Shown: positions 1-9,258, counted from the first letter of the stretch. The stretch: 64,000 nucleotides of DNA from Planctomycetota bacterium (GCA_965223845.1 CBDCXR010000004.1:3787334-3851333), one strand, 5' to 3'. Translations and numbers: made by a program. Notes: generated by a model from the letters alone, not told the origin.

Positions 1-698
1 CTCGGGCGAATCTGCTCGCCATTATTCCGACGAGCGTTGGCGGCTCGAAGCCGAACGTACTCGCTAGCGGCGACGCGCTTCCGTCGCCGCAGCAGCGTCT
101 CCTCGACACCCTTCGGGCGGAGGTGGAGCGCGGCGAGCTCGAAGGCGCTTTCAGTATCCGCGGCATGCCTCCCGGCCCCCTGAGCGCCGTACTCGCCTGG
201 GGCGTCGCCGAACCCAGTCGCGTCGAGCAGGCGCTCGTCGACCTGTTCGAGTCCGCCAAGAAGTATGGCGCCGGCTCGTTCTCGTCCACCGTGACTCGCT
301 TCCGGGATCGACCCGTCCATCGCGTTCAGTTCGGAAACGAGGATCCCAAGGTCGAGCGAATCTTCGGGCGTGGAGCCGCCGTCCACTGGACGACGACGAA
401 GGACGCCGTGCTCTTCGCGTACGGAGCGAAGAGTCTCGAGGCTCTCAAATGGAGCCTCGAGAGGAAGTCAACTCCCCGACGCAGCAAGCATCTCTACGCG
501 CCGGCGTTGTTCACGACGCGCGTCCGCCCGTGGCTCGATATTTTCGGTCCGCTCGATCGACGCGTCGAAAGCATGAAGTCGGCGGTTCGGCCGACGGACC
601 GTCTGTTCATGGAATCCAGCCTGAACGGCGACGGGATGCTCACGCGGTTCGAGATCCCCACGGGACTCATCCGCGCGCTGGTGAAAGCCGCGAAGTAG
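1..698 (+). CDS. Hypothetical protein, 3' portion of a gene that starts upstream of the window
   Basis: Frame 3 is open from position 3 to the stop at 696-698 with no upstream stop. Composition is normal (K, F, Y, W, I present, not Arg-rich), unlike the shadow ORFs. I do not recognise a family. Confidence 0.5.
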   Translation, partial: RANLLAIIPTSVGGSKPNVLASGDALPSPQQRLLDTLRAEVERGELEGAFSIRGMPPGPLSAVLAWGVAEPSRVEQALVDLFESAKKYGAGSFSSTVTRFRDRPVHRVQFGNEDPKVERIFGRGAAVHWTTTKDAVLFAYGAKSLEALKWSLERKSTPRRSKHLYAPALFTTRVRPWLDIFGPLDRRVESMKSAVRPTDRLFMESSLNGDGMLTRFEIPTGLIRALVKAAK

Positions 699-748
699 CG
701 GGCTCGGAGCGCTCAGGGGTCGGAAAAGAGCTCGCGCGGTTCGATCCG

Positions 749-1912
749 TTATCGGGATTGGGCAGCGTCGGGCCCGTGAACGAGTGGGCCCGCACCCGCG
801 CCTTCGATCGAGTGCGCACCGGCGGGCGTCAGTCGAACGGCGGTCCTCACACGCTCGACGAGATTCCGCGCCGCGAGGCGACGCACGACGCGCTCGACGC
901 GCTTCGGGCTCCAGTTGAAGCGCGCCGCGAGCGAGGCGGGGTCGACCGCTTCGCTTCCGCCGCTCAAATGCAGCAGAAACAGTTGTTCGCGGAGACGCCG
1001 CGCCAGCCGGAGTCGAAACAGCGCTCGCGCCACGAGCCCGTACCGCGGCGAGAGGACGAGGGCGAGAAGGAAGAACACGCCCGCCATCGTCGCCATCGCA
1101 GCTGCGATCGAGCAGTCGATCGCGTAGGCGAGTGCGTATCCGGTCGCCGTGGATGCGATTCCGAACGCGACCGCGAGCGCGATCATGGAGCGCAGTCGAT
1201 CGGTGAGGAGGTACGCGGTCGCCGGAGGAACGACGAGCATCGCGACGACGAGGATCGCACCGACCGATTCGAACGAGCCGACGACGGTCACCGACACGGC
1301 GGACATGAGGAGGTAGTGAACGACGACGGGTGAGATTCCGAGCGCGGCGGCGAGCTGCGGATCGAAGCTGGCGACCTTGAGCTCCTTGTAGAACACGATG
1401 ACGACGAGCAGATCGAGGATGAGGATGGCGAGCGAAACCCAGATCGCCTTCGGGCCGAACTCGGGTCGCCCGGGGATCAAGGGATCGATCGGTGCGAGAC
1501 CGATCTCGCCGTAGAGAACGCAGTCGACATCGATGTGAACCGACGACAGATAGCGACTGAGAAGAATGACGCCGATCGAGAAGAGGGCCGGAAAAACGAC
1601 TCCGATCGAGGCATCCTCCTTGAGACGGCGGGTCCGAACGAGGAGCCCGACGAGAAAGACCGTCAAGACGCCGCACGCGCCGGCTCCGATGAGCGTCAGA
1701 ATCGGTGCGTGGGCTCCAGCGACGAGATACGCGATCGCGATCCCCGGCAGCACGGAGTGGCTGATCGCGTCCCCGAGAAGCGCCATGCGGCGGAGAACCA
1801 GGAACGAACCGACCAGCGCGCAACTCGACGCGACGGCGCTCCCGACGATGAGGATCACCCAGCGATCGGAGTCGAGGCCGAGGAACGAGCTGAGTCCGAG
1901 AACGAAGCTCAC
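749..1912 (-). CDS. Metal (Mn/Zn/Fe-type) ABC transporter permease, ABC-3 family, with a fused C-terminal winged-helix (DtxR-type HTH-like) domain
   Basis: A multi-TM ABC-3 core (about 280 aa) typical of MntB/ZnuB/TroD, followed by about 90 aa of soluble, helix-rich sequence (LREQLFLLHLSGG...VERVRTAVRLTPAG). Its start overlaps the upstream permease stop at 1909-1912 (ATGA). Confidence 0.8.
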   Translation of the reverse strand: MSFVLGLSSFLGLDSDRWVILIVGSAVASSCALVGSFLVLRRMALLGDAISHSVLPGIAIAYLVAGAHAPILTLIGAGACGVLTVFLVGLLVRTRRLKEDASIGVVFPALFSIGVILLSRYLSSVHIDVDCVLYGEIGLAPIDPLIPGRPEFGPKAIWVSLAILILDLLVVIVFYKELKVASFDPQLAAALGISPVVVHYLLMSAVSVTVVGSFESVGAILVVAMLVVPPATAYLLTDRLRSMIALAVAFGIASTATGYALAYAIDCSIAAAMATMAGVFFLLALVLSPRYGLVARALFRLRLARRLREQLFLLHLSGGSEAVDPASLAARFNWSPKRVERVVRRLAARNLVERVRTAVRLTPAGAHSIEGAGAGPLVHGPDAAQSR

Positions 1913-3228
1913 CTTGCACCTCGTCCACTCGTCGTCTCGGCGTCGTTTCCCTCCCCGTCGGGGTTCGGGATCGCTCGGCCGTGCGGGTCGTGCGTCGGAT
2001 GCCCCAGAATGCGCGCGAACTCACGCACGGCTTCGTCGCTGAGCGCGTGCTCCATCTCCTCGGCGTCGCGGTGGACGTGATCGGCGGGAAGGTCGAGTCT
2101 TCGCGTGAGATAGAGCTCCCAGAGCCGGTGCTTGCGGACGACGCGCTGCGCGGCAACGAGCCCGGAAGGAGTTAGGCGCAGTCCATCGGCAACGGTTTCG
2201 ACGAGCCTCCGCGCTGCGAGCGCCTGCGCGGTTCGATCGACGACGCCGCCTCTCTGTCCGCGAAATCCCATCAGAACGGAACGAGGTACGGCTTCCTCCC
2301 AACTGCCGGTGCTCTCACCGCAGCGGTAGAGGTCGTTGAGCAGGTTTTCGCGGCGGATGCGCCGGGCGAGGCGACGGTGGCGCACGAACGCCCAAACCAC
2401 CCCGCGCCGCGGCGCGAGCGCGGTCGAAAGCGCGAGAATCGCGCTCGCGACGACAACGATCGTGGGTCCCGTCGGCATGCGATCGATCGTTCCGCTCAGC
2501 GTCGCGCCGGCAGCGCTCGAAAACGCGCCGATGGTAGCGGCGAGAAGAAGCATGATGCTGAAACGGTCCGTCCACTGCCGCGCGGCCGCCGCCGGCGTGA
2601 CGAGGGCGGCGACGGTGAGGACGACGCCGACGGTTTGCAGTCCGACGACGACGACTGCGACGAGGACCACCGTGAGGAGGACCTCGAGAAAACGCGTCGG
2701 CAGACCGATGCTCGCGGCGAACTCGCGATCGAAGCAGAGGAGCTTGAGTTCCTTGTAGAAAAGGAGGATGCAGGCGAGGACGGCGGCGCCGACGACCGCG
2801 AAGAGTACGAGGTCGCTCCCGAGCAAGGTGACGGCCTGTCCGAACAGGAATCGATCGAGTCCCGCCTGATTTCCGTGCGCCGTCTTTTGAATGTACGTGA
2901 GAAGAACAATTCCCACGCCGAAGAACACCGAGAGCACGATGCCCATCGCGGAGTCTTCCTTGACCCGGCTCCCGCGAGCGACCGCGAGCATGACGAGCGC
3001 CCCCAGAAGTCCCGTGGCCGCCGCACCCGCGAGAATCGCCGGAGAGCTCTTCGCGCCGACGAGCAGATACGCGAGGCAGACCCCGGGGAGCGCCGCGTGA
3101 GCCAGAGCATCGCCGAGGAGGCTCTGCCGCCGAAGCACGGCGAAAACGCCCGTCGCACCACCGATCGTCCCGAGGAGGGACGTCCCGATGAGCACGTTTC
3201 GGAAAGTGGAAGATGTCAGCCAGTCCAT
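1909..3228 (-). CDS. Metal ABC transporter permease (ABC-3 family) fused to a DtxR/MntR-family regulator domain (HTH plus metal-binding dimerisation domain)
   Basis: An N-terminal ABC-3 permease core is followed by a C-terminal about 150 aa containing RKHRLWELYLTRRLDLPADHVHRDAEEMEHALSDEAVREFARILGHPTHDPHGRAIP. This closely matches the DtxR dimerisation/metal-site region (RHRLAERFL...HDEACRWEHVMSDEV...SPFGNPIP). Confidence 0.85.
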   Translation of the reverse strand: MDWLTSSTFRNVLIGTSLLGTIGGATGVFAVLRRQSLLGDALAHAALPGVCLAYLLVGAKSSPAILAGAAATGLLGALVMLAVARGSRVKEDSAMGIVLSVFFGVGIVLLTYIQKTAHGNQAGLDRFLFGQAVTLLGSDLVLFAVVGAAVLACILLFYKELKLLCFDREFAASIGLPTRFLEVLLTVVLVAVVVVGLQTVGVVLTVAALVTPAAAARQWTDRFSIMLLLAATIGAFSSAAGATLSGTIDRMPTGPTIVVVASAILALSTALAPRRGVVWAFVRHRRLARRIRRENLLNDLYRCGESTGSWEEAVPRSVLMGFRGQRGGVVDRTAQALAARRLVETVADGLRLTPSGLVAAQRVVRKHRLWELYLTRRLDLPADHVHRDAEEMEHALSDEAVREFARILGHPTHDPHGRAIPNPDGEGNDAETTSGRGAR

Positions 3229-3431
3229 CGCCTTCGCCCCGTCGCTCCCGCATCGTCCGAGCGACGGATCAACAGCCCGTTGAGAAAGTGCTTCGAGTCG
3301 ACAGCCGGCTCGTGTGCGTTCCGATCGGCCGCGGCAAATGCGGACGATCTTACGGGTTTTCGAGAATGGGCGCGGCCGATTGGAGCGTGAACGCGCCGGT
3401 CGTTCGGCCGAACGAGTTTTTGGGCGGACGG

Positions 3432-4322
3432 TTAACCCGAGCTTCGCGGCGGCCGCGCGCGAAGAAGAGATTCCGCCGCCTTCGACAGCGCGGTCAATCG
3501 GCCGCCGTACGTCATTTGGATGTTCTCTTCGTTGAACGTCGTCGGCACGGGTCCCGCCGCGACGAGTCGCATGTTGAGAAAGATCACGTCGTCGAAGTAC
3601 GCCGCGACGGTTTGTAGGTCGTGGTGGACGGCGACGACCGTCCGACCCTCCGCGCGCAGCTTCTTCAGCAGGCCGAGAACCGCCTCCTCGGTCGCGGCGT
3701 CGACGCCCGCGAACGGCTCGTCCATCAGATAGAGCCGCGCGTCCTGCGCAAGCGCGCGAGCGAGGAACACGCGCTGCTGCTGGCCGCCGGAGAGCTGGTT
3801 GATCTGCCGCCGGGCGAACTCCTCCATGCCGACCTCGGCGAGGCAGCGCATCGCACGGTCACGATGCCGGCGAGTCGGCCACCGAATCCATCCCAGCTCG
3901 CCGTAGAGTCCCATCGTAACGACGTCGAGCGCCGTGGTCGGAAAATCCCAGTCGACGGTCTCTCGCTGCGGCACGTACGCGACCCACGATCGCCGCTCGG
4001 CGTACGGCGCGCCGAACACCTTGACCCAACCGGTCAGCGGACGCACGAGTCCGAGGATTCCCTTGAGCAGCGTACTCTTTCCTGCTCCGTTCGGTCCGAC
4101 GATGGCGATGAGCCGCCCGGGAGGAAAGGTGACGTCGACGTCCCAGAGGACGGGGTGCACGCCGTACGCGACGGTCATGTCGTGCACTTCCACCGCTGCC
4201 GGTGCGTTCTCGTCGGAGGACGAGGACGCCGCTGCGGTCGGCGCCTCATCGGCGCTAGGCTCCGCGCGCACCAAGCGAGCTTCTGCGTTGGGGCGATTCT
4301 CCTCGCGCTCCGCGCCGCTCAT
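3432..4322 (-). CDS. Metal ABC transporter ATP-binding protein (ZnuC/MntA-like)
   Basis: Walker A GPNGAGKST, signature LSGGQQQR, Walker B LYLMDEP. I trimmed the 298-aa Arg-rich N-terminal extension of ORF 3432..5216. The chosen ATG overlaps the substrate-binding-protein stop (ATGA at 4319-4322). The low-complexity about 48-aa N-terminus suggests the true start may be the later MTVAYG Met near 4178. Confidence 0.8.
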   Translation of the reverse strand: MSGAEREENRPNAEARLVRAEPSADEAPTAAASSSSDENAPAAVEVHDMTVAYGVHPVLWDVDVTFPPGRLIAIVGPNGAGKSTLLKGILGLVRPLTGWVKVFGAPYAERRSWVAYVPQRETVDWDFPTTALDVVTMGLYGELGWIRWPTRRHRDRAMRCLAEVGMEEFARRQINQLSGGQQQRVFLARALAQDARLYLMDEPFAGVDAATEEAVLGLLKKLRAEGRTVVAVHHDLQTVAAYFDDVIFLNMRLVAAGPVPTTFNEENIQMTYGGRLTALSKAAESLLRARPPRSSG

Positions 4323-5275
4323 CGCAGCGACTCCACGAGCGTCGTCACGTTGTGGCGAACCATCGTCGCGTAGGTGTCGGCGCCGCTCTCGGCCGGCCCC
4401 AAGGAGTCCGAGTAGAGCTCGCCCCCGACGGCGACCTCGTGGCCGCGGTCGCGGCACGCGGCCTGTACGGCCTCGATGCTCTTTCGCGGCACGCTGCTTT
4501 CGACGAAGATCGCTTTCAATTGTCGATCGATGATCACCTCGGTGACGCGCGCGATGTCGCGTAGACCGGCCTCCGCCGCCGTGTTGATGCCCTGGAGTCC
4601 GACGACCTCGACGCCGTAACGGTCTCCGAAGTAGCCGAATGCGTCGTGCGCCGTGACGAGAACGCGCGAGGATTCGGGGATCTTCCCGATTTCCTCCTTC
4701 ACCCACGCGTCGAGAGCCAGCAACTCGGCCGCGACCGCGCGGTAGCGCTCGTCGATCGCTTCCGCGTCCTCCGGCGACAGGGCTTTCAACTCCGTAGCGA
4801 CCGCACCGCAGACGATCGTCCACAGGGAGACGTCGAACCACACGTGCGGATCGACCGCCCCGTCCTCTCGGCGGACGCGATCCTCCGGCAGCGTCTCGGC
4901 AACCGCGACGACACGCCGGCCGGCGCCGGCGATGCGCTCGAGCACCGAGCCCATCTTCCCCTCGAGATGGAAGCCGTTGTAGAGAACGAGATCCGCGGCG
5001 CCGAGCCGGCGCACGTCGCTCTCCGTCGGATTGTAGAGGTGAGGATCGATCCCCGGGCGCATCAAGCCGACCACCTCGACCCCGTCCGGTGCGAGACGCT
5101 CGGCGATCTCTGCGATCATTCCCGTCGTCGCGACGACAACCGGACCGATGCGTTCCGCCCCGGGGGAGCAAGCGACGCCCGCCGCGAGCGCGAGACCGGC
5201 GAGCGCGCCCCGCCACCAGCGCCCGCGCGCACGTTCCGTGGATGCACCGAGCCGTCGAGTTCGCGCGTCGATCAT
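4319..5275 (-). CDS. Metal ABC transporter substrate-binding protein (cluster A-I; ZnuA/MntC/TroA family)
   Basis: N-terminal signal sequence, conserved His/Asp/Glu positions (DPHLY, DPHVW, HDAFGYF) and overall TroA-like length. It is the first gene of the minus-strand operon SBP-ATPase-permease-permease. Confidence 0.85.
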   Translation of the reverse strand: MIDARTRRLGASTERARGRWWRGALAGLALAAGVACSPGAERIGPVVVATTGMIAEIAERLAPDGVEVVGLMRPGIDPHLYNPTESDVRRLGAADLVLYNGFHLEGKMGSVLERIAGAGRRVVAVAETLPEDRVRREDGAVDPHVWFDVSLWTIVCGAVATELKALSPEDAEAIDERYRAVAAELLALDAWVKEEIGKIPESSRVLVTAHDAFGYFGDRYGVEVVGLQGINTAAEAGLRDIARVTEVIIDRQLKAIFVESSVPRKSIEAVQAACRDRGHEVAVGGELYSDSLGPAESGADTYATMVRHNVTTLVESLR

Positions 5276-5391
5276 AGAGAAGACTCTAACCGAGACGCGA
5301 GCTCGAGAACATGCCGCGCCTTCGGCTCGACGTTAACGCAGCGCCCGATGGCCCCGAACCGAGAACGTGGTCCCAAACCTCTCGGCGATCC

Positions 5392-6684
5392 TCACGGAGT
5401 CTCGTTCGTGCTCGGCTCCGTTGGCGGGGACGAGCCACCGTCCGCGGGAGCATCGGGAGCCGACTCGGCCGCCGCCGATTCCTTCGTCTTTCGGGGGAAC
5501 CGGCCGTTCTGCAGGAAATGAAGCGTGCGGCGGATCACCTCCGGCTCCGACGCCATGAATGTGTGGCCCACCGGAAGGACGCAAAAGTCGCGCGCACCGG
5601 GAAGCCGCGTGTTGTCGACGCGGACGACTCCGTCGTTGTCGCCGAGAAGAAACGGGTTGTAGCCTCGGCCCCCGGTTCCCCCCGCGATGATCCCGAATTC
5701 GCAGTCGGGAACGGGACGTGCGTCGACTTCATCCGGGGTCAGCTCCGGTCCCGACGGGCCCGCGAGCGCCCGAAAGATCGGGAACGACTCGAGCCGATTC
5801 GCGATGACGCTCCCCTGGTTGGGCGGCCCGAGCATCACGAGACGATGAGTCTGGATTCGCTGCCGCCAAGCCGCTGGCCGCGCGAGCAGCTCACGAACGA
5901 CGATGCCGCCGAGACTGTGCGTGACGAAGGAGACTTCCCGAATCTCGGACGCGGCGTCGAGCACTCTCTCGATCCCGTCGGCGTGGTCGTCGATCGAGCG
6001 CCGCGTGCTCGGGTATCCGACCGCAGCAGTTTCGTAACCGGCGGCGGCGAGTGCTTCCTCAAACTGCCGGAACATTCCCCTCGTTCTCCCGAGGCCGTGA
6101 ACGAGGACGACGAGATGGTCGCTCCGAGGACAGAGATCGCGTTCGCGCGCCTCGCGTTCGAAGCTCGTTCGGCACGCAGCGAACGAGCCCCACGCGCGCC
6201 GCACGTTGCCCGCGTCGAGAAGACGAAAGTGACCGAAGTGAACGTGCTCCTGAATGCGCCAGCCGCGACGCACAAAGCGATCCGCCCAGAGCTGAGCTCC
6301 CCCGAGTGTGCGGATCGGAAGATTCGGTCTCCCGACTCCGTGACGGCGCACGAGCTCACGGCTTCGGGCGGCGGCACACTCGTCCCAGCTGCCCGCGGCG
6401 ACGACTCGGGCACCGCGGATGTCGACGACGCGGTACCTCTCCTCGTCCGGAACACGCTCGATGCGAAGATCGAGTACGAGGCGATCAGCGCAGCGATCCG
6501 AGTTCGCGCGGTTCGCCGGGCGGGGCGGGGCTTTCGGCTTCGTTTCCTGAGCTCCTGCCCCGGCGCAAGCGAGCAGAACCGAGACGAACGCCGCCGCGAT
6601 GCGAGCCGCTCCCCCCAACCGAAAGACAAACGCTCCGCGTGGCGGCTTCGAGTCGCCCCGCGACTCGGGTGGATCGTTCGGCAT
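5392..6684 (-). CDS. Secreted alpha/beta-hydrolase (lipase/esterase-like; GxSxG nucleophile HSLGG)
   Basis: Motifs VVLVHGLGR and THSLGG, plus a signal peptide after the chosen start MPNDPPESRGDSKPPRGAFVFRLGGAARIAAAFVSVLLACAGAGAQE. The upstream 105 aa of the ORF are Arg/Ser-rich and were trimmed. Confidence 0.65.
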   Translation of the reverse strand: MPNDPPESRGDSKPPRGAFVFRLGGAARIAAAFVSVLLACAGAGAQETKPKAPPRPANRANSDRCADRLVLDLRIERVPDEERYRVVDIRGARVVAAGSWDECAAARSRELVRRHGVGRPNLPIRTLGGAQLWADRFVRRGWRIQEHVHFGHFRLLDAGNVRRAWGSFAACRTSFEREARERDLCPRSDHLVVLVHGLGRTRGMFRQFEEALAAAGYETAAVGYPSTRRSIDDHADGIERVLDAASEIREVSFVTHSLGGIVVRELLARPAAWRQRIQTHRLVMLGPPNQGSVIANRLESFPIFRALAGPSGPELTPDEVDARPVPDCEFGIIAGGTGGRGYNPFLLGDNDGVVRVDNTRLPGARDFCVLPVGHTFMASEPEVIRRTLHFLQNGRFPRKTKESAAAESAPDAPADGGSSPPTEPSTNETP

Positions 6685-6982
6685 CGAGTCTTCCTCTCTG
6701 CGGCACGGACCGCTTCGAGCCAAAGTCCCGCGCCCGCCGTTCTCGTCTGAAGATGATTGTGGCGTGCTCGAGCGGGATCTCAAGCGTTCACCTCGAGGAA
6801 CGTCGACCCAAGTCCGGCGAGCGCCGCCGCGCGGAGAAGTCCGTTCCCTCGATGCCTCGATGTTCTCGCTTTGAGATCCCCGAGGAACCCAGTACATCTG
6901 GGAACTTCCGAAGGAAACGCCGGCGCGTCTTCTTCGCTCCGGTGTCCGCAGCCCGCTCCCGAGAGTACATCCGAGGAATGAG

Positions 6983-8458
6983 ATGAGACCAATCGCCAAG
7001 ATCTCCCTGCTGCTCCTAGCGCTTGCGTGTACCCCTCAGGCGATGTCCGCGCCGAAGAAGATTCTTCTCGTCGGCACGCATCCGAGTCACGGGTACAACC
7101 AGCACGAATACCTCCACGGGAATCGCATTCTCGCGCACTGCCTGCGGCAGAACGGCGTCGACGCCGTGTCCTACAACGGCTTTCCTCCGGCGGAGGAGAT
7201 CAATGAGGCGGCGCACTTCCACCTCTTCTGCTCCTGGGGCGGCGACTTCGTGCTAAAGGATGCGGACCGCCGGGCAATCTTCCTCGCAAACATTCGCCGC
7301 GGCATGGGCTTCTCGACGCTTCACTTTGCGTGCGATATCACCCCCGACCTCGAAGACAAGGGACTCGGCGACGTCTACATGGAGGCGCTCGGGGCGTTTT
7401 ACGACACCGGGTTCTCGCGCAACCCGCACAATACGGTCACTCTTCGTCCGGCGAACGTCGGGCATCCGATTCTGAGCGGCGTGAGCGAGCTGACGCAGCA
7501 CGACGAGATCTACTTCAACCTGCGGTTCATGCCGTACACGCGTCCGGTCCTCGTCGGACGAATCAAGGATCGCGACGGCGACTTCGATCGCTGGGTCTCG
7601 TGGTGTTACGAACGTCCCGACGGCGGGCGCTCGTTCGGCTACACGGGAGCGCACTTCCACAAGACCTTCGAAGCGGAGAGTTTCCGGCGCCACCTCGTAA
7701 ACGGGATTCTCTGGTCGGCGAAAGTCGAGCTTCCCGAAGGAGGGGCGAAGGTCGACTTCGATCCCGCGTGGCTCGTTCCGCCGCGCCGGAAGGCACCGGC
7801 TGGTCGCCCCCCCGCGGGAAAGCTCCTTCCGCTGGACCGGGCGGGAGGCGACGCGGAGTGGGTGAACATCCTCACGGCCGAATCCTTTCCGCGGTGGACG
7901 CAGAAAGGTAAGGCGAACTGGAAGCTCGAAGACGGAGTGCTCACCGGAACGGGGCCGGTCGGTCACGTCTTCAGCCCGCGCGGCGACTACGCCAACTTCG
8001 AGTACGAGGCCGAGGTGAAGATCAGCAACGATTCGAACAGCGGCATGTACTTTCGTGCGGAGCTCGGCGACTCGTGGCCGAATGGCTACGAAGCGCAGGT
8101 GAACGCCTCGCACGGCGATCCCGTACGCTCCGGCAGCCTCTATCACTTCGAGAAGGTGTTCGAGAAATATACGAAAAACGACGAGTGGTTCACGCAGCGC
8201 ATCGTCGCCGCCGGAAACCGGATCACCATTTCGATCAACGGTGCTCCCGTCGTCGACGTCGATATGGACGAGAAGCTCGCCCGAGTTCAGACTCAGCTCG
8301 CCGCGGAGACGGACGCGAGAAAGAAGCGTCAGCTCGGCCGGCTCGCACAGCAGATCGACAGCTTTCGCAAGCTCGAACGAGGCCACTTCGCGTTCCAGCA
8401 GCATCACGACGGTAGCGTGGTTCAGTACCGGAACGTCCGCGTGCGCGAATTGCCCTAG
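6983..8458 (+). CDS. Secreted ThuA-like (trehalose-utilisation/type-1 glutamine-amidotransferase-like) domain fused to a DUF1080 (3-keto-disaccharide hydrolase / LamG-like) domain
   Basis: Signal peptide MRPIAKISLLLLALACTPQA. The N-terminal ThuA-like part includes KKILLVGTHPSHGYNQHEY. The C-terminal part has the DUF1080 hallmark ending GHFAFQQHHDGSVVQYRNVRV. Confidence 0.75.
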   Translation: MRPIAKISLLLLALACTPQAMSAPKKILLVGTHPSHGYNQHEYLHGNRILAHCLRQNGVDAVSYNGFPPAEEINEAAHFHLFCSWGGDFVLKDADRRAIFLANIRRGMGFSTLHFACDITPDLEDKGLGDVYMEALGAFYDTGFSRNPHNTVTLRPANVGHPILSGVSELTQHDEIYFNLRFMPYTRPVLVGRIKDRDGDFDRWVSWCYERPDGGRSFGYTGAHFHKTFEAESFRRHLVNGILWSAKVELPEGGAKVDFDPAWLVPPRRKAPAGRPPAGKLLPLDRAGGDAEWVNILTAESFPRWTQKGKANWKLEDGVLTGTGPVGHVFSPRGDYANFEYEAEVKISNDSNSGMYFRAELGDSWPNGYEAQVNASHGDPVRSGSLYHFEKVFEKYTKNDEWFTQRIVAAGNRITISINGAPVVDVDMDEKLARVQTQLAAETDARKKRQLGRLAQQIDSFRKLERGHFAFQQHHDGSVVQYRNVRVRELP

Positions 8459-8508
8459 TCCTGCACGGGAAAACGAGGCGACGGCTCTCAAGCTCGAGTG
8501 CGTCGCCC

Positions 8509-9258
8509 CTAGTCTCGCCGCCGCAGATTCGAACGAACGAACTCGCGATTGAGTCGCGCGATGTTTTCGACGCGGATCGACTTCGGGCACGCGGCCTCGC
8601 ACTCGCTCTCGTTCGTGCAGTTGCCGAAGCCTTCATCGTCCATCGCTTCGATCATCGCGCGTGCACGGCGAGCTCGCTCCGGCTGTCCCTGCGGGAGAAG
8701 CGCGAGCTGCGAGACCTTCGCGGAAACGAACAGCATCGCAGAGGCGTTCTTGCACGAGGCCACGCAGGCGCCGCAACCGATGCACGCCGCTGCGTCCATC
8801 GCGAGGTCGGCGTTTTCCTTCGGAATCGCGATCGCGTTCGCGTCGGGAGCCGCCCCCGTCCGCACCGACACGTAGCCACCGGCGCGGATGATTCGGTCGA
8901 AGCTCGAACGGTCGACAACGAGATCCTTCACCACCGGGAACGCGCCCGCGCGCCACGGCTCGATCTCGATCGTGTCGCCGCTCCGAAAGTGCCGCATGTG
9001 GAGCTGACAGACCGTCGTCCCGCGCTCGGGTCCGTGGGCGCGCCCGTCGATGACGAGGCTGCACATTCCACAGATTCCTTCGCGGCAATCGTGGTCGAAT
9101 GCGACCGGATCCTCGCCGCGACGCTCGAGATCTTCGTTGAGGACGTCCAGCATTTCGAGGAACGACGCCTCTTCCGAGATCCCGCTCACCTCGTACGTGA
9201 CCATACGACCGGGATCTTGCGCGTTCTTCTGCCGCCAGATCTTGAGCGTCAACTCCAT
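8509..9258 (-). CDS. sdhB: Succinate dehydrogenase/fumarate reductase iron-sulfur subunit
   Basis: Cys clusters [16 protein letters not shown]...C and [12 protein letters not shown] typical of SdhB 2Fe-2S/4Fe-4S/3Fe-4S sites. I chose the start at MELTLKIW and trimmed 35 aa. Confidence 0.9.

Follow-up and report, generated by a model that had tools for sequence, protein, structure and literature searches.

The 64,000 nucleotides of Planctomycetota bacterium DNA analysed here (GCA_965223845.1 CBDCXR010000004.1:3787334-3851333) are referred to as the window (64 kb), and all coordinates are those of the whole window. At 5275..749 on the minus strand the window carries a TroABCD/YtgABCD-type Mn/Fe/Zn ATP-binding cassette (ABC) importer, and both permeases of this importer end in cytoplasmic tails of DtxR type. 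The operon consists of four closely packed genes in the order troA-like binding protein, troB-like ATPase, permease 1 and permease 2. The third gene encodes permease 1, a YtgC-type permease-repressor fusion, whose tail is a DtxR/MntR-type metal sensor of two domains that lacks SH3. Permease 2 belongs to the TroD type, and its tail is an old paralogue of the permease 1 winged helix without the dimerisation/metal domain. Permease 1 thus adds to a known type of fusion an example from a free-living organism; what is new here is the winged-helix tail paired with it, together with the range of tails described below. The permease 1 module would bind a Mn/Fe-type metal in the cytoplasm and give negative feedback on uptake, a proposal well supported by residue conservation.

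The two permeases and their tails

An initial annotation, made from the sequence of the window, had proposed that both permeases are fused to DtxR-type domains, and had placed their open reading frames (ORFs) at 1909..3228 and 749..1912. Both ORFs were found at these positions, on the minus strand. The domains resolved in the two products are as follows.

1909..3228, minus strand: permease 1, 439 residues
2413..3228, minus strand: ABC-3 transmembrane domain of permease 1, residues 1-272, nine transmembrane helices (PF00950 and AlphaFold2)
2173..2412, minus strand: junction (A-P273-R-R275-G276) and divergent DtxR-type winged helix of permease 1, residues 273-352 (AlphaFold2, superposition)
1954..2172, minus strand: DtxR dimerisation and metal-binding domain of permease 1, residues 353-425 (PF02742)
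1909..1953, minus strand: disordered C-terminus of permease 1 and stop (predicted local distance difference test score, pLDDT, below 50 at residues 425-439; columns gapped in the family)
749..1912, minus strand: permease 2, 387 residues
1049..1912, minus strand: ABC-3 transmembrane domain of permease 2, residues 1-288 (PF00950; PsaC is the best fold match in the PDB)
752..1048, minus strand: junction (S288-P289..G292) and winged-helix-only tail of permease 2, residues 289-387, 99 residues (hhalign, AlphaFold2)

The permease 1 tail was identified as a full DtxR module by several comparisons. PF00950 (ABC-3) matched residues 8-270 of permease 1 (E 1.6e-69), PF02742 (Fe_dep_repr_C, cut-off 27 bits) matched residues 353-422 (E 2.5e-26), and the NCBIfam DtxR and MntR models matched residues 325-432. 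Of the three Pfam families against which the initial annotation proposed a check, PF00950 and PF02742 were therefore recovered, but PF01325, the Pfam DtxR winged helix, gave no match to permease 1 even at E<=1, so the winged helix is the diverged part of the module. With phmmer against the PDB, residues 294-426 paired with nearly the whole two-domain chain of DR2539 (E 2.7e-18), the Mn repressor of Deinococcus radiodurans and the closest solved structure of the module. In the AlphaFold2 model (pLDDT 80.7 overall, 85-93 in the tail), the ninth transmembrane helix (TM9, 253-271) is followed by a five-residue turn and a single long helix (277-307), after which come a helix-turn-helix (316-323 and 327-339), a beta wing (343-352) and three more helices (354-407). 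The module superposed on DNA-bound DR2539 (8pw0_A) with a TM-score of 0.88 and a root-mean-square deviation (rmsd) of 1.6 A over 135 columns at 40% identity, and it also superposed on IdeR, DtxR, SloR and ScaR. No SH3/FeoA domain was found in it. As encoded, it is joined covalently to a nine-helix permease through the 5-residue junction, in which P273, R275 and G276 are kept in 120/120 homologues, and is not a soluble homodimer; it is for this reason described as DtxR-derived and not as a free-standing member of the DtxR/MntR family.

The metal ligands published for DR2539 were carried over to permease 1 through the phmmer alignment. The primary site (D11/E102/E105/H106 of DR2539) corresponds to N295/E390/E393/H394, with N295 on helix 1 of the module, and the binuclear ancillary site (H79/E83/H98/D126/H128/D130) corresponds to H367/E371/H386/D414/H416/R418. 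Eight of the ten Mn ligands are identical, the exceptions being N295 (D11) and R418 (D130). Among the 120 best homologues there is no variation at N295, H367, E371, H386, E393, H394, D414 or H416, and position 390 is occupied by E or D. The pattern HxH...E..EH...HDPHGxxIP noted in the initial annotation is present as H384-V-H386, E390, E393-H394, H413-D414-P415-H416-G417..I420-P421. Since the primary site is acidic and without Met or Cys, it is assigned to the Mn/Fe type and not to the DtxR iron type; metal binding by the module is predicted from these ligands. DR2539 has the same acidic Mn-type set (primary E102, E105 and H106; ancillary H79, E83, H98, D126 and H128), but it is a soluble protein with a C-terminal FeoA/SH3 domain, N295 and R418 of the window stand in place of its D11 and D130, and its recognition helix and wing Tyr59 are not conserved in the window; its 'tertiary' metal site is specific to Deinococcus.

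The permease 2 tail contains the winged helix only, and of the same type. PF00950 matched residues 21-287 of permease 2 (E 1.9e-50). In the tail, Pfam gave only sub-threshold winged-helix matches, MarR_2 and HVO_A0261_N (E ~3e-5, residues 313-368), and no match of the dimerisation domain PF02742. When the two tails were aligned with hhalign, they matched at 97.8% (E 7e-13), over the first 92 columns only, that is, the junction and the winged helix. The tail 2 profile against the PDB found MarR-type proteins, SSO2273, and residues 20-71 of DtxR/IdeR (E 1e-3 to 0.05). AlphaFold2 predicts helices at 293-316, 325-331 and 336-348, a wing at 352-361 and a short helix at 363-371, with pLDDT ~90. H315, R331, F332, W334, G365 and L377 are invariant in the 120 homologues of permease 2, and T362 and H379 are kept in 118/120. 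The term TroD-type permease with winged-helix-only tail (ABC-3 plus a ~90-110-residue homologue of DtxR domain 1, no PF02742) is a grouping of our own and not a published family. Among 238 matches of the tail 2 profile in 1.84 billion representatives, no convincing case of a free-standing tail was found; most of them are gene fragments or complete permeases that carry the tail C-terminally. In P0273, P0277, P0279, P0281, P0283 and similar proteins of 600-910 residues, the tail profile matched 4-6 separate stretches; these are apparently multi-repeat winged-helix proteins, unrelated to permeases.

Both tails lie in the cytoplasm. The AlphaFold2 models have nine transmembrane helices in each permease, as in PsaC (PMC8346216), and permease 1 superposes on PsaC (7kyp) with a TM-score of 0.87 and an rmsd of 2.9 A. 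Arg-rich stretches follow TM1 and TM9, in the positive-inside pattern. Taken together, the nine helices and the Arg-rich segments put the N-terminus outside and both tails inside, as the initial annotation had expected for the regulator domain. Both tails leave from TM9, and tail 2 begins beside tail 1. The initial annotation had also suggested that the two fusions heterodimerise. A canonical DtxR-type heterodimer is impossible in the window because permease 2 lacks the dimerisation domain, but some other pairing of the tails is conceivable by analogy with PsaC, in which TM9 is part of the dimer interface (PMC8346216).

The fusions are genuine. The 120 best homologues of permease 1 all have PF02742 and lengths of 422-444 residues, and the 120 of permease 2 all share its architecture at lengths of 368-397 residues (mode 368); their identity to the window permeases is ~60-66%, and many of the permease pairs lie on one contig. 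The window pair recurs in metagenome-assembled genomes (MAGs) of Acidobacteriota and Thermoanaerobaculia, in metagenome contigs and in two large genomes, and relatives at 60-64% identity include Acidobacteriota, Thermoanaerobaculia and Myxococcales MAGs. The search for the same architecture that was proposed in the initial annotation thus found it in independent genomes and metagenomes (loci L001, L002, L074-77, L093 and L094) and in several phyla. Since all 120 best homologues share length and architecture and the independent assemblies agree, an assembly or frameshift artefact joining a permease to a separate dtxR gene, to which we would assign practically no probability, is refuted.

A series of tail states in related importers

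At least 73 genome loci, 19 metagenome loci and three loci around close homologues were collected, and their ORFs were scored with profiles of the window families. The winged-helix profile was iterated on the loci; distant winged-helix calls come from this iterated profile and were checked with hhalign. Both permeases could be classified in 88 loci, the window included. As the scan relied on peptide patterns that bias the sample, the following counts (state of permease 1 / permease 2) are not natural frequencies.

Winged helix / winged helix: 49 loci; Bacteroidota, Chloroflexota, Gemmatimonadota, Poribacteria, Fibrobacterota, Krumholzibacteriia, Planctomycetota and others
Full module / winged helix: 11 loci; the state of the window
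Short / winged helix: 6 loci; Tro type, Spirochaetales, Isosphaera and Nitrosopumilus MAGs among them
Short / short: 5 loci
Full / full: 5 loci
Full / short: 3 loci; Ytg type, a Chlamydiae MAG among them
Short / full: 3 loci
Single-ORF permease-module-transmembrane helix-permease: 3 loci
Other: 2 loci (L062, short / 73-residue unclassified tail; L092, 206-residue unclassified tail / short in a single ORF)
One permease cut by the contig end: 2 loci (L012 and L095; second permease unclassified)

Winged-helix-only tails, on a single permease or on the pair, occur in 66 of the 88 classified loci, from many phyla. These tails matched those of the window in hhalign at 99.3% (permease 2 type) and 98.8% (permease 1 type), which confirms, at the level of sequence profiles, that they are orthologous to the window's tails. 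No description of winged-helix-only tails was found in the searchable literature. The statement in the initial annotation that the window does not follow the canonical arrangement therefore goes too far, such tails being the rule in the classified loci.

The winged-helix-only tails of the 49 loci (e.g. L010 6986-8110 and 8123-9247, L004, L017, L024) have conserved clusters of His, Asp and Glu between helix 1 and helix 2, with the motif 'qH.d..HpH' in the permease 1 type and 'HL..HE...E....HL..H..W' in the permease 2 type. These clusters look like metal-binding motifs. Apart from H315, the window tails are without them.

Other members of the series differ in the placing of the module. In three loci (L078 5905-8508, L079, L081 5950-8487) a single ORF of 846-868 residues encodes permease 1, a winged helix, a truncated DtxR metal domain, a hydrophobic helix, a His/Pro-rich loop and permease 2. 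The extra hydrophobic helix before the second permease agrees with the topology given above, as an N-terminus outside requires it. These three loci have a soluble DtxR gene divergently upstream and a promoter palindrome CGAACTT-N6-7-AAGTTCG. A full DtxR module is found on both permeases in L082, L083, L088, L089 (permeases ~5893-7236 and ~7068-8576) and L080; no soluble DtxR gene was found in the flanks of these loci, and in this state a DtxR-type pair could form within one transporter. L052 (6959-9005), from a Nitrosopumilus sp. MAG, has a Tro-type pair of a short permease 1 and a winged-helix-tailed permease 2; unless this contig is mis-binned, the tail is not confined to bacteria.

The full / short state is that of Chlamydia. 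CT069 (YtgC-YtgR) of C. trachomatis is the third gene of ytgABCD (PMC5599777). In dependence on metal, its YtgR domain binds the ytg promoter and acts there as a repressor, and the domain occurs as a cleavage product (PMC7755916, PMC5599777). A WWW motif that senses tryptophan has been described for YtgC (PMC7755916). This corrects the initial annotation, which was aware of no functional description; YtgC-YtgR is a fusion of this kind that is cleaved to a repressor dependent on metal, namely iron. The review PMC5599777 also reports orthologous permease-DtxR fusions in 11 phyla (from Akers 2011 and Thompson 2012), and the YtgR literature found since 2021 concerns Chlamydia only. The window operon resembles ytgABCD in gene order (binding protein, ATPase, permease-DtxR fusion, second permease), and permease 1 resembles YtgC-YtgR in having an ABC-3 domain followed by a two-domain DtxR module without SH3 and with conserved metal ligands. 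The corresponding protein of the Chlamydiae MAG locus L063 aligns with residues 1-421 of permease 1 at 34% identity, in the same gene order. The second permease of that locus, however, has a 16-residue tail in place of the 99-residue winged-helix tail of the window. Cleavage is known only for the C. trachomatis protein; for the window protein, cleavage, DNA binding and an operator are predicted by analogy.

TroABCD-TroR of Treponema represents the short / winged helix state. It shares with the window a TroA-like binding protein and two different ABC-3 permeases, and TroR of T. pallidum is, like the fused module, a two-domain DtxR without SH3. The regulator is, however, a separate gene after troD and TroC is tailless, whereas in the window the module is fused to the TroC equivalent. 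Treponema TroD has 366-367 residues and TroC 298-304 (PMC2628430), lengths that fit this state given the 368-residue mode of the permease 2 family and a Spirochaetales MAG locus (L060) of the same kind. From length and L060, a winged-helix tail on Treponema TroD is thus inferred.

Other operon genes and the surrounding sequence

The remaining features of the operon are listed below.

4319..5275, minus strand: troA-like periplasmic metal-binding protein, 318 residues, first gene of the operon (PF01297 ZnuA, E 1.6e-74)
3432..4322, minus strand: troB-like ABC ATPase, 296 residues (Walker A GPNGAGKST, signature LSGGQQQR and Walker B LYLMDEP, read by eye)
3229..3431, minus strand: 203-nt gap between ATPase and permease 1, without a recognisable element

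The closest solved relative of the binding protein is TroA of Treponema pallidum (1toa, E 1.1e-80), and the DPH, DPHVWFD, AHDAFGYF and SD motifs are identical in the alignment of the two proteins. These motifs presumably contain the metal ligands of TroA, three His and one Asp. The ATG of troB overlaps the troA stop by 4 nt (ATGA), and the stop of permease 1 overlaps the GTG start of permease 2 in the same way (GTGA, 4 nt). One ATPase thus stands beside two distinct ABC-3 permeases, whose profiles each reach ~415-440 bits with the gene of their own family but ~125 bits with the partner gene. The ATPase orthologues of L093 and L094 have PF00005. The N-terminus of the window ATPase (4188-4322, minus strand) is a low-complexity extension of ~45 residues, rich in Ala, Glu, Ser and Pro, ahead of the first beta strand; most of it is missing from the ATPases of L093 (277 residues) and L094 (274 residues).

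The 203-nt gap gave no Rfam match and no promoter-like site, and its RNA fold z-score was -0.30. It can hardly be aligned with the 187-nt gap at this place in L093, and L094 has none there. A perfect 16-bp palindrome at 3400-3415 (TCGTTCGGCCGAACGA) in this gap would form a terminator-like hairpin with a T-run on the plus strand only, antisense to the operon. Rfam and transfer RNA scans of the whole window were empty; the operon is therefore taken to have no RNA marker and no riboswitch. A promoter and terminator scan of 500-5600 gave no promoter-like site and two terminator-like sites, fewer than expected from shuffled sequence.

Upstream of the operon, an alpha/beta hydrolase gene (DUF676/DUF7379-like) lies at 5392-6684 on the minus strand, with a counterpart at 1-879 of L093. 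In L093 an HhH-GPD gene and a soluble dtxR gene stand between the hydrolase gene and troA. This segment is absent from the window, which suggests loss or gain of a regulator segment. Divergent from the hydrolase gene, a gene at 6983-8458 (plus strand) encodes a ThuA-like domain fused to a 3-keto-disaccharide hydrolase (DUF1080-type) domain, with a signal peptide. At the other end, a 191-residue ORF without a Pfam match (123-698, plus strand) converges with the end of permease 2.

Possible roles of the fused tails

We favour a YtgR-like feedback sensor on uptake, at somewhat less than an even chance. The imported metal would load the sites of the permease 1 module, and the loaded module would feed back negatively on uptake, most likely as in Chlamydia, where the published work agrees with the suggestion of the initial annotation that the soluble domain may be released by proteolysis. 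By this analogy the module would be freed from the membrane by a protease, dimerise, bind DNA and repress the operon's own promoter at a putative operator. Release of this kind is placed first because it is the only behaviour shown experimentally in the family, because no other DtxR is found near the window operon (no soluble DtxR-family gene within 64 kb) and because lineages with only fused modules have promoter palindromes. In the fused-only loci L083/88/89, L085 and L084, a palindrome TGTAGC-N4-GCTACA lies just upstream of the binding-protein gene; as no soluble DtxR is present in the flank, it fits fused modules acting on DNA. In L083 and L089 the element just upstream of the binding-protein gene reads GCTACAGTAGC...GCTACAT.

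Several observations weigh against this reading. A soluble three-domain DtxR (PF01325, PF02742 and FeoA), usually divergently transcribed, adjoins the operon in 6/9 loci of window architecture with a readable upstream flank; no soluble DtxR gene was found in the flanks of L001 and L002. The upstream regions of four of these six loci were read, and three of them (L074, L093, L094) have a 16-bp palindrome TTTTGR-N4-YCAAAA; L076 and L077 are also among the regions read. With soluble DtxR and this box both present, transcriptional control there seems to be provided already. The boxes found, all of them in the promoter of the binding-protein gene, are as follows.

L093, ~3000-3020: TTTTTTGACAAGTCAAAAAA, promoter of the binding-protein gene
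L094, ~3205-3220: TTTTGGTATGCCAAAA, promoter of the binding-protein gene
L074, ~4162-4177: TTTTGATCACCCAAAA, promoter of the binding-protein gene
L002, ~5021-5036: TTTTGATTAGTCAAAA, a similar box; window architecture, no soluble DtxR in the flank
L090, ~3590-3605: a similar box; short / short state, soluble DtxR adjacent

A soluble DtxR gene is thus adjacent or divergent in four of the five box loci, L002 being the exception. The half-site resembles the DR2539 box (TTTTAG...CTAAAA), and the box has the same geometry as TGTAGC-N4-GCTACA with a different sequence. The soluble paralogues have the canonical recognition helix that the fused modules lack: in permease 1 this helix is without the 'VAPGTVT.MVK' motif, and the wing is without the Tyr of the soluble paralogues. 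In BLAST only the dimerisation domains of fused and soluble proteins align (40-46% identity). To these points are added the failure of PF01325 on the winged helix; the junction of permease 1, in which five invariant residues run into a continuous helix with no flexible tether; and the single-ORF proteins, in which the module is caught between two membrane domains. Scans for operators in the window were also negative. TTTTGR-N4-YCAAAA gave four matches with 3 mismatches, a number below chance expectation and all at a distance from the operon, GTAG-N2-12-CTAC gave one match distant from the operon, and a general scan for 6-Nx-6 palindromes gave chance-level sites only. Two weak candidates were noted.

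5274..5289, minus strand: TTAGAG-TCTT-CTCTAT, overlapping the troA start codon (6-N4-6, 1 mismatch, palindrome scan)
5324..5345, no strand: imperfect 22-bp palindrome GGCGCTGCGTTAACGTCGAGCC, 50-70 nt upstream of troA, 77% complementary (repeat search)

About one site like the first is expected by chance in a region of that size, so that it is not evidence alone, and the second has no conserved counterpart in the relatives, whose boxes differ. The sequence 'GGTTAG' near the start codon was considered as part of a DtxR box and discarded on visual inspection, as the rest of the 19-mer does not match.

The chief alternative, distinctly less likely in our judgement, is that the module acts in cis on the transporter. 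A permease 1 tail filled with metal would stiffen the pair of tails and lock the transporter, as a form of trans-inhibition with no DNA binding; the tails, leaving TM9 side by side, would sit between the ATPase subunits, and the winged helices would be structural or coupling elements. The short, invariant junction and the position of TM9 in the PsaC dimer interface (PMC8346216) would suit such a device, as would the recognition helix being less conserved than the metal domain. It would also account for the 66/88 loci whose winged-helix-only tails have neither a dimerisation domain nor canonical metal sites, carry conserved His/Glu motifs of their own that the window's tails lack, and often belong to operons adjoined by a soluble DtxR gene and its operator; and one cut cannot free the module from the single-ORF fusions. 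A precedent is found in E. coli ZnuBC, where a C-terminal Zn-sensing domain of the ZnuC ATPase locks the transporter on binding Zn (PMC12236471). ZnuBC is also an importer of the ABC-3 metal class with a cytoplasmic metal-binding domain built into the transporter, but its sensor is on the ATPase, not the permease, and is not related to DtxR. Against gating in cis, YtgC-YtgR, the sole experimentally studied member, is cleaved and binds DNA; the window module retains the full DtxR fold in the DNA-bound geometry and keeps Arg at position 332 (91/120; aligned with the equivalent of DtxR Gln43 in the alignment to DtxR and DR2539) and at 335 (100/120); and palindromic boxes lie upstream of operons in which fused modules are the only nearby DtxR. 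That the tails of Tro-type permeases in general are built-in cytoplasmic metal sensors gating the importer in cis is, in the same way, a tentative proposal. Under it, the permease 1 metal domain would pair with the bare permease 2 winged helix under the TM9-TM9 interface; in most other phyla this function would fall to winged-helix tails rich in His/Glu on the two permeases, with soluble DtxR handling transcription; and YtgR-like release would be a second, lineage-specific use to which this older allosteric device was put.

Two further explanations are improbable. Through its dimerisation domain, the tethered module could pair with a soluble DtxR paralogue and hold or release it according to the state of the transporter or the metal, comparable to the capture of Mlc by PtsG. 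The 40-46% identity of fused and soluble dimerisation domains next to winged helices unrelated at BLAST level, and the paralogues adjoining six of nine loci, would agree with such partner switching, but the window has no soluble DtxR within its 64 kb, none is present in the flanks of L001 and L002, and the family offers no experimental precedent; we consider it quite unlikely. Still less credit is given to the tails as relics of an old gene fusion with no role beyond permease folding or stability. The divergence of the winged helix past Pfam recognition and the loss of the metal domain from permease 2 could be read in this way. It is contradicted by the invariance of N295 and seven of the eight metal-domain ligands in 120 homologues at ~60-65% identity (E390 being E or D), by the six invariant permease 2 tail residues with two more at 118/120, by the high confidence with which both tails are predicted and by the persistence of the architecture across phyla.

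Importers of the ABC-3 class (cluster A-I), among them Tro, Ytg, Psa, Mnt and Znu, act in virulence and serve as drug targets; only for ZnuBC is it known how activity itself, rather than transcription, is shut off. Work on the permease-DtxR fusion is confined to Chlamydia, in which genetics is difficult. For the window itself the result is modest, namely a known kind of fusion in a free-living organism, accompanied by a partner tail that is undescribed. The comparative question is of higher interest, as the fusion represents a single state within a wide range of permease tails derived from DtxR, of which the commonest state, the winged-helix-only tail, is undescribed in the searchable literature. 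Such tails occur in free-living Acidobacteriota, Bacteroidota, Chloroflexota, Gemmatimonadota, Planctomycetota and Spirochaetota, and even in a Nitrosopumilus MAG. The natural variants in this series, with the module between the permeases, with full modules on both, or with operons that have or lack a soluble paralogue, separate the release and gating models. The series thus provides testable material for the question whether a classic repressor fold has been reused as a transporter gate.

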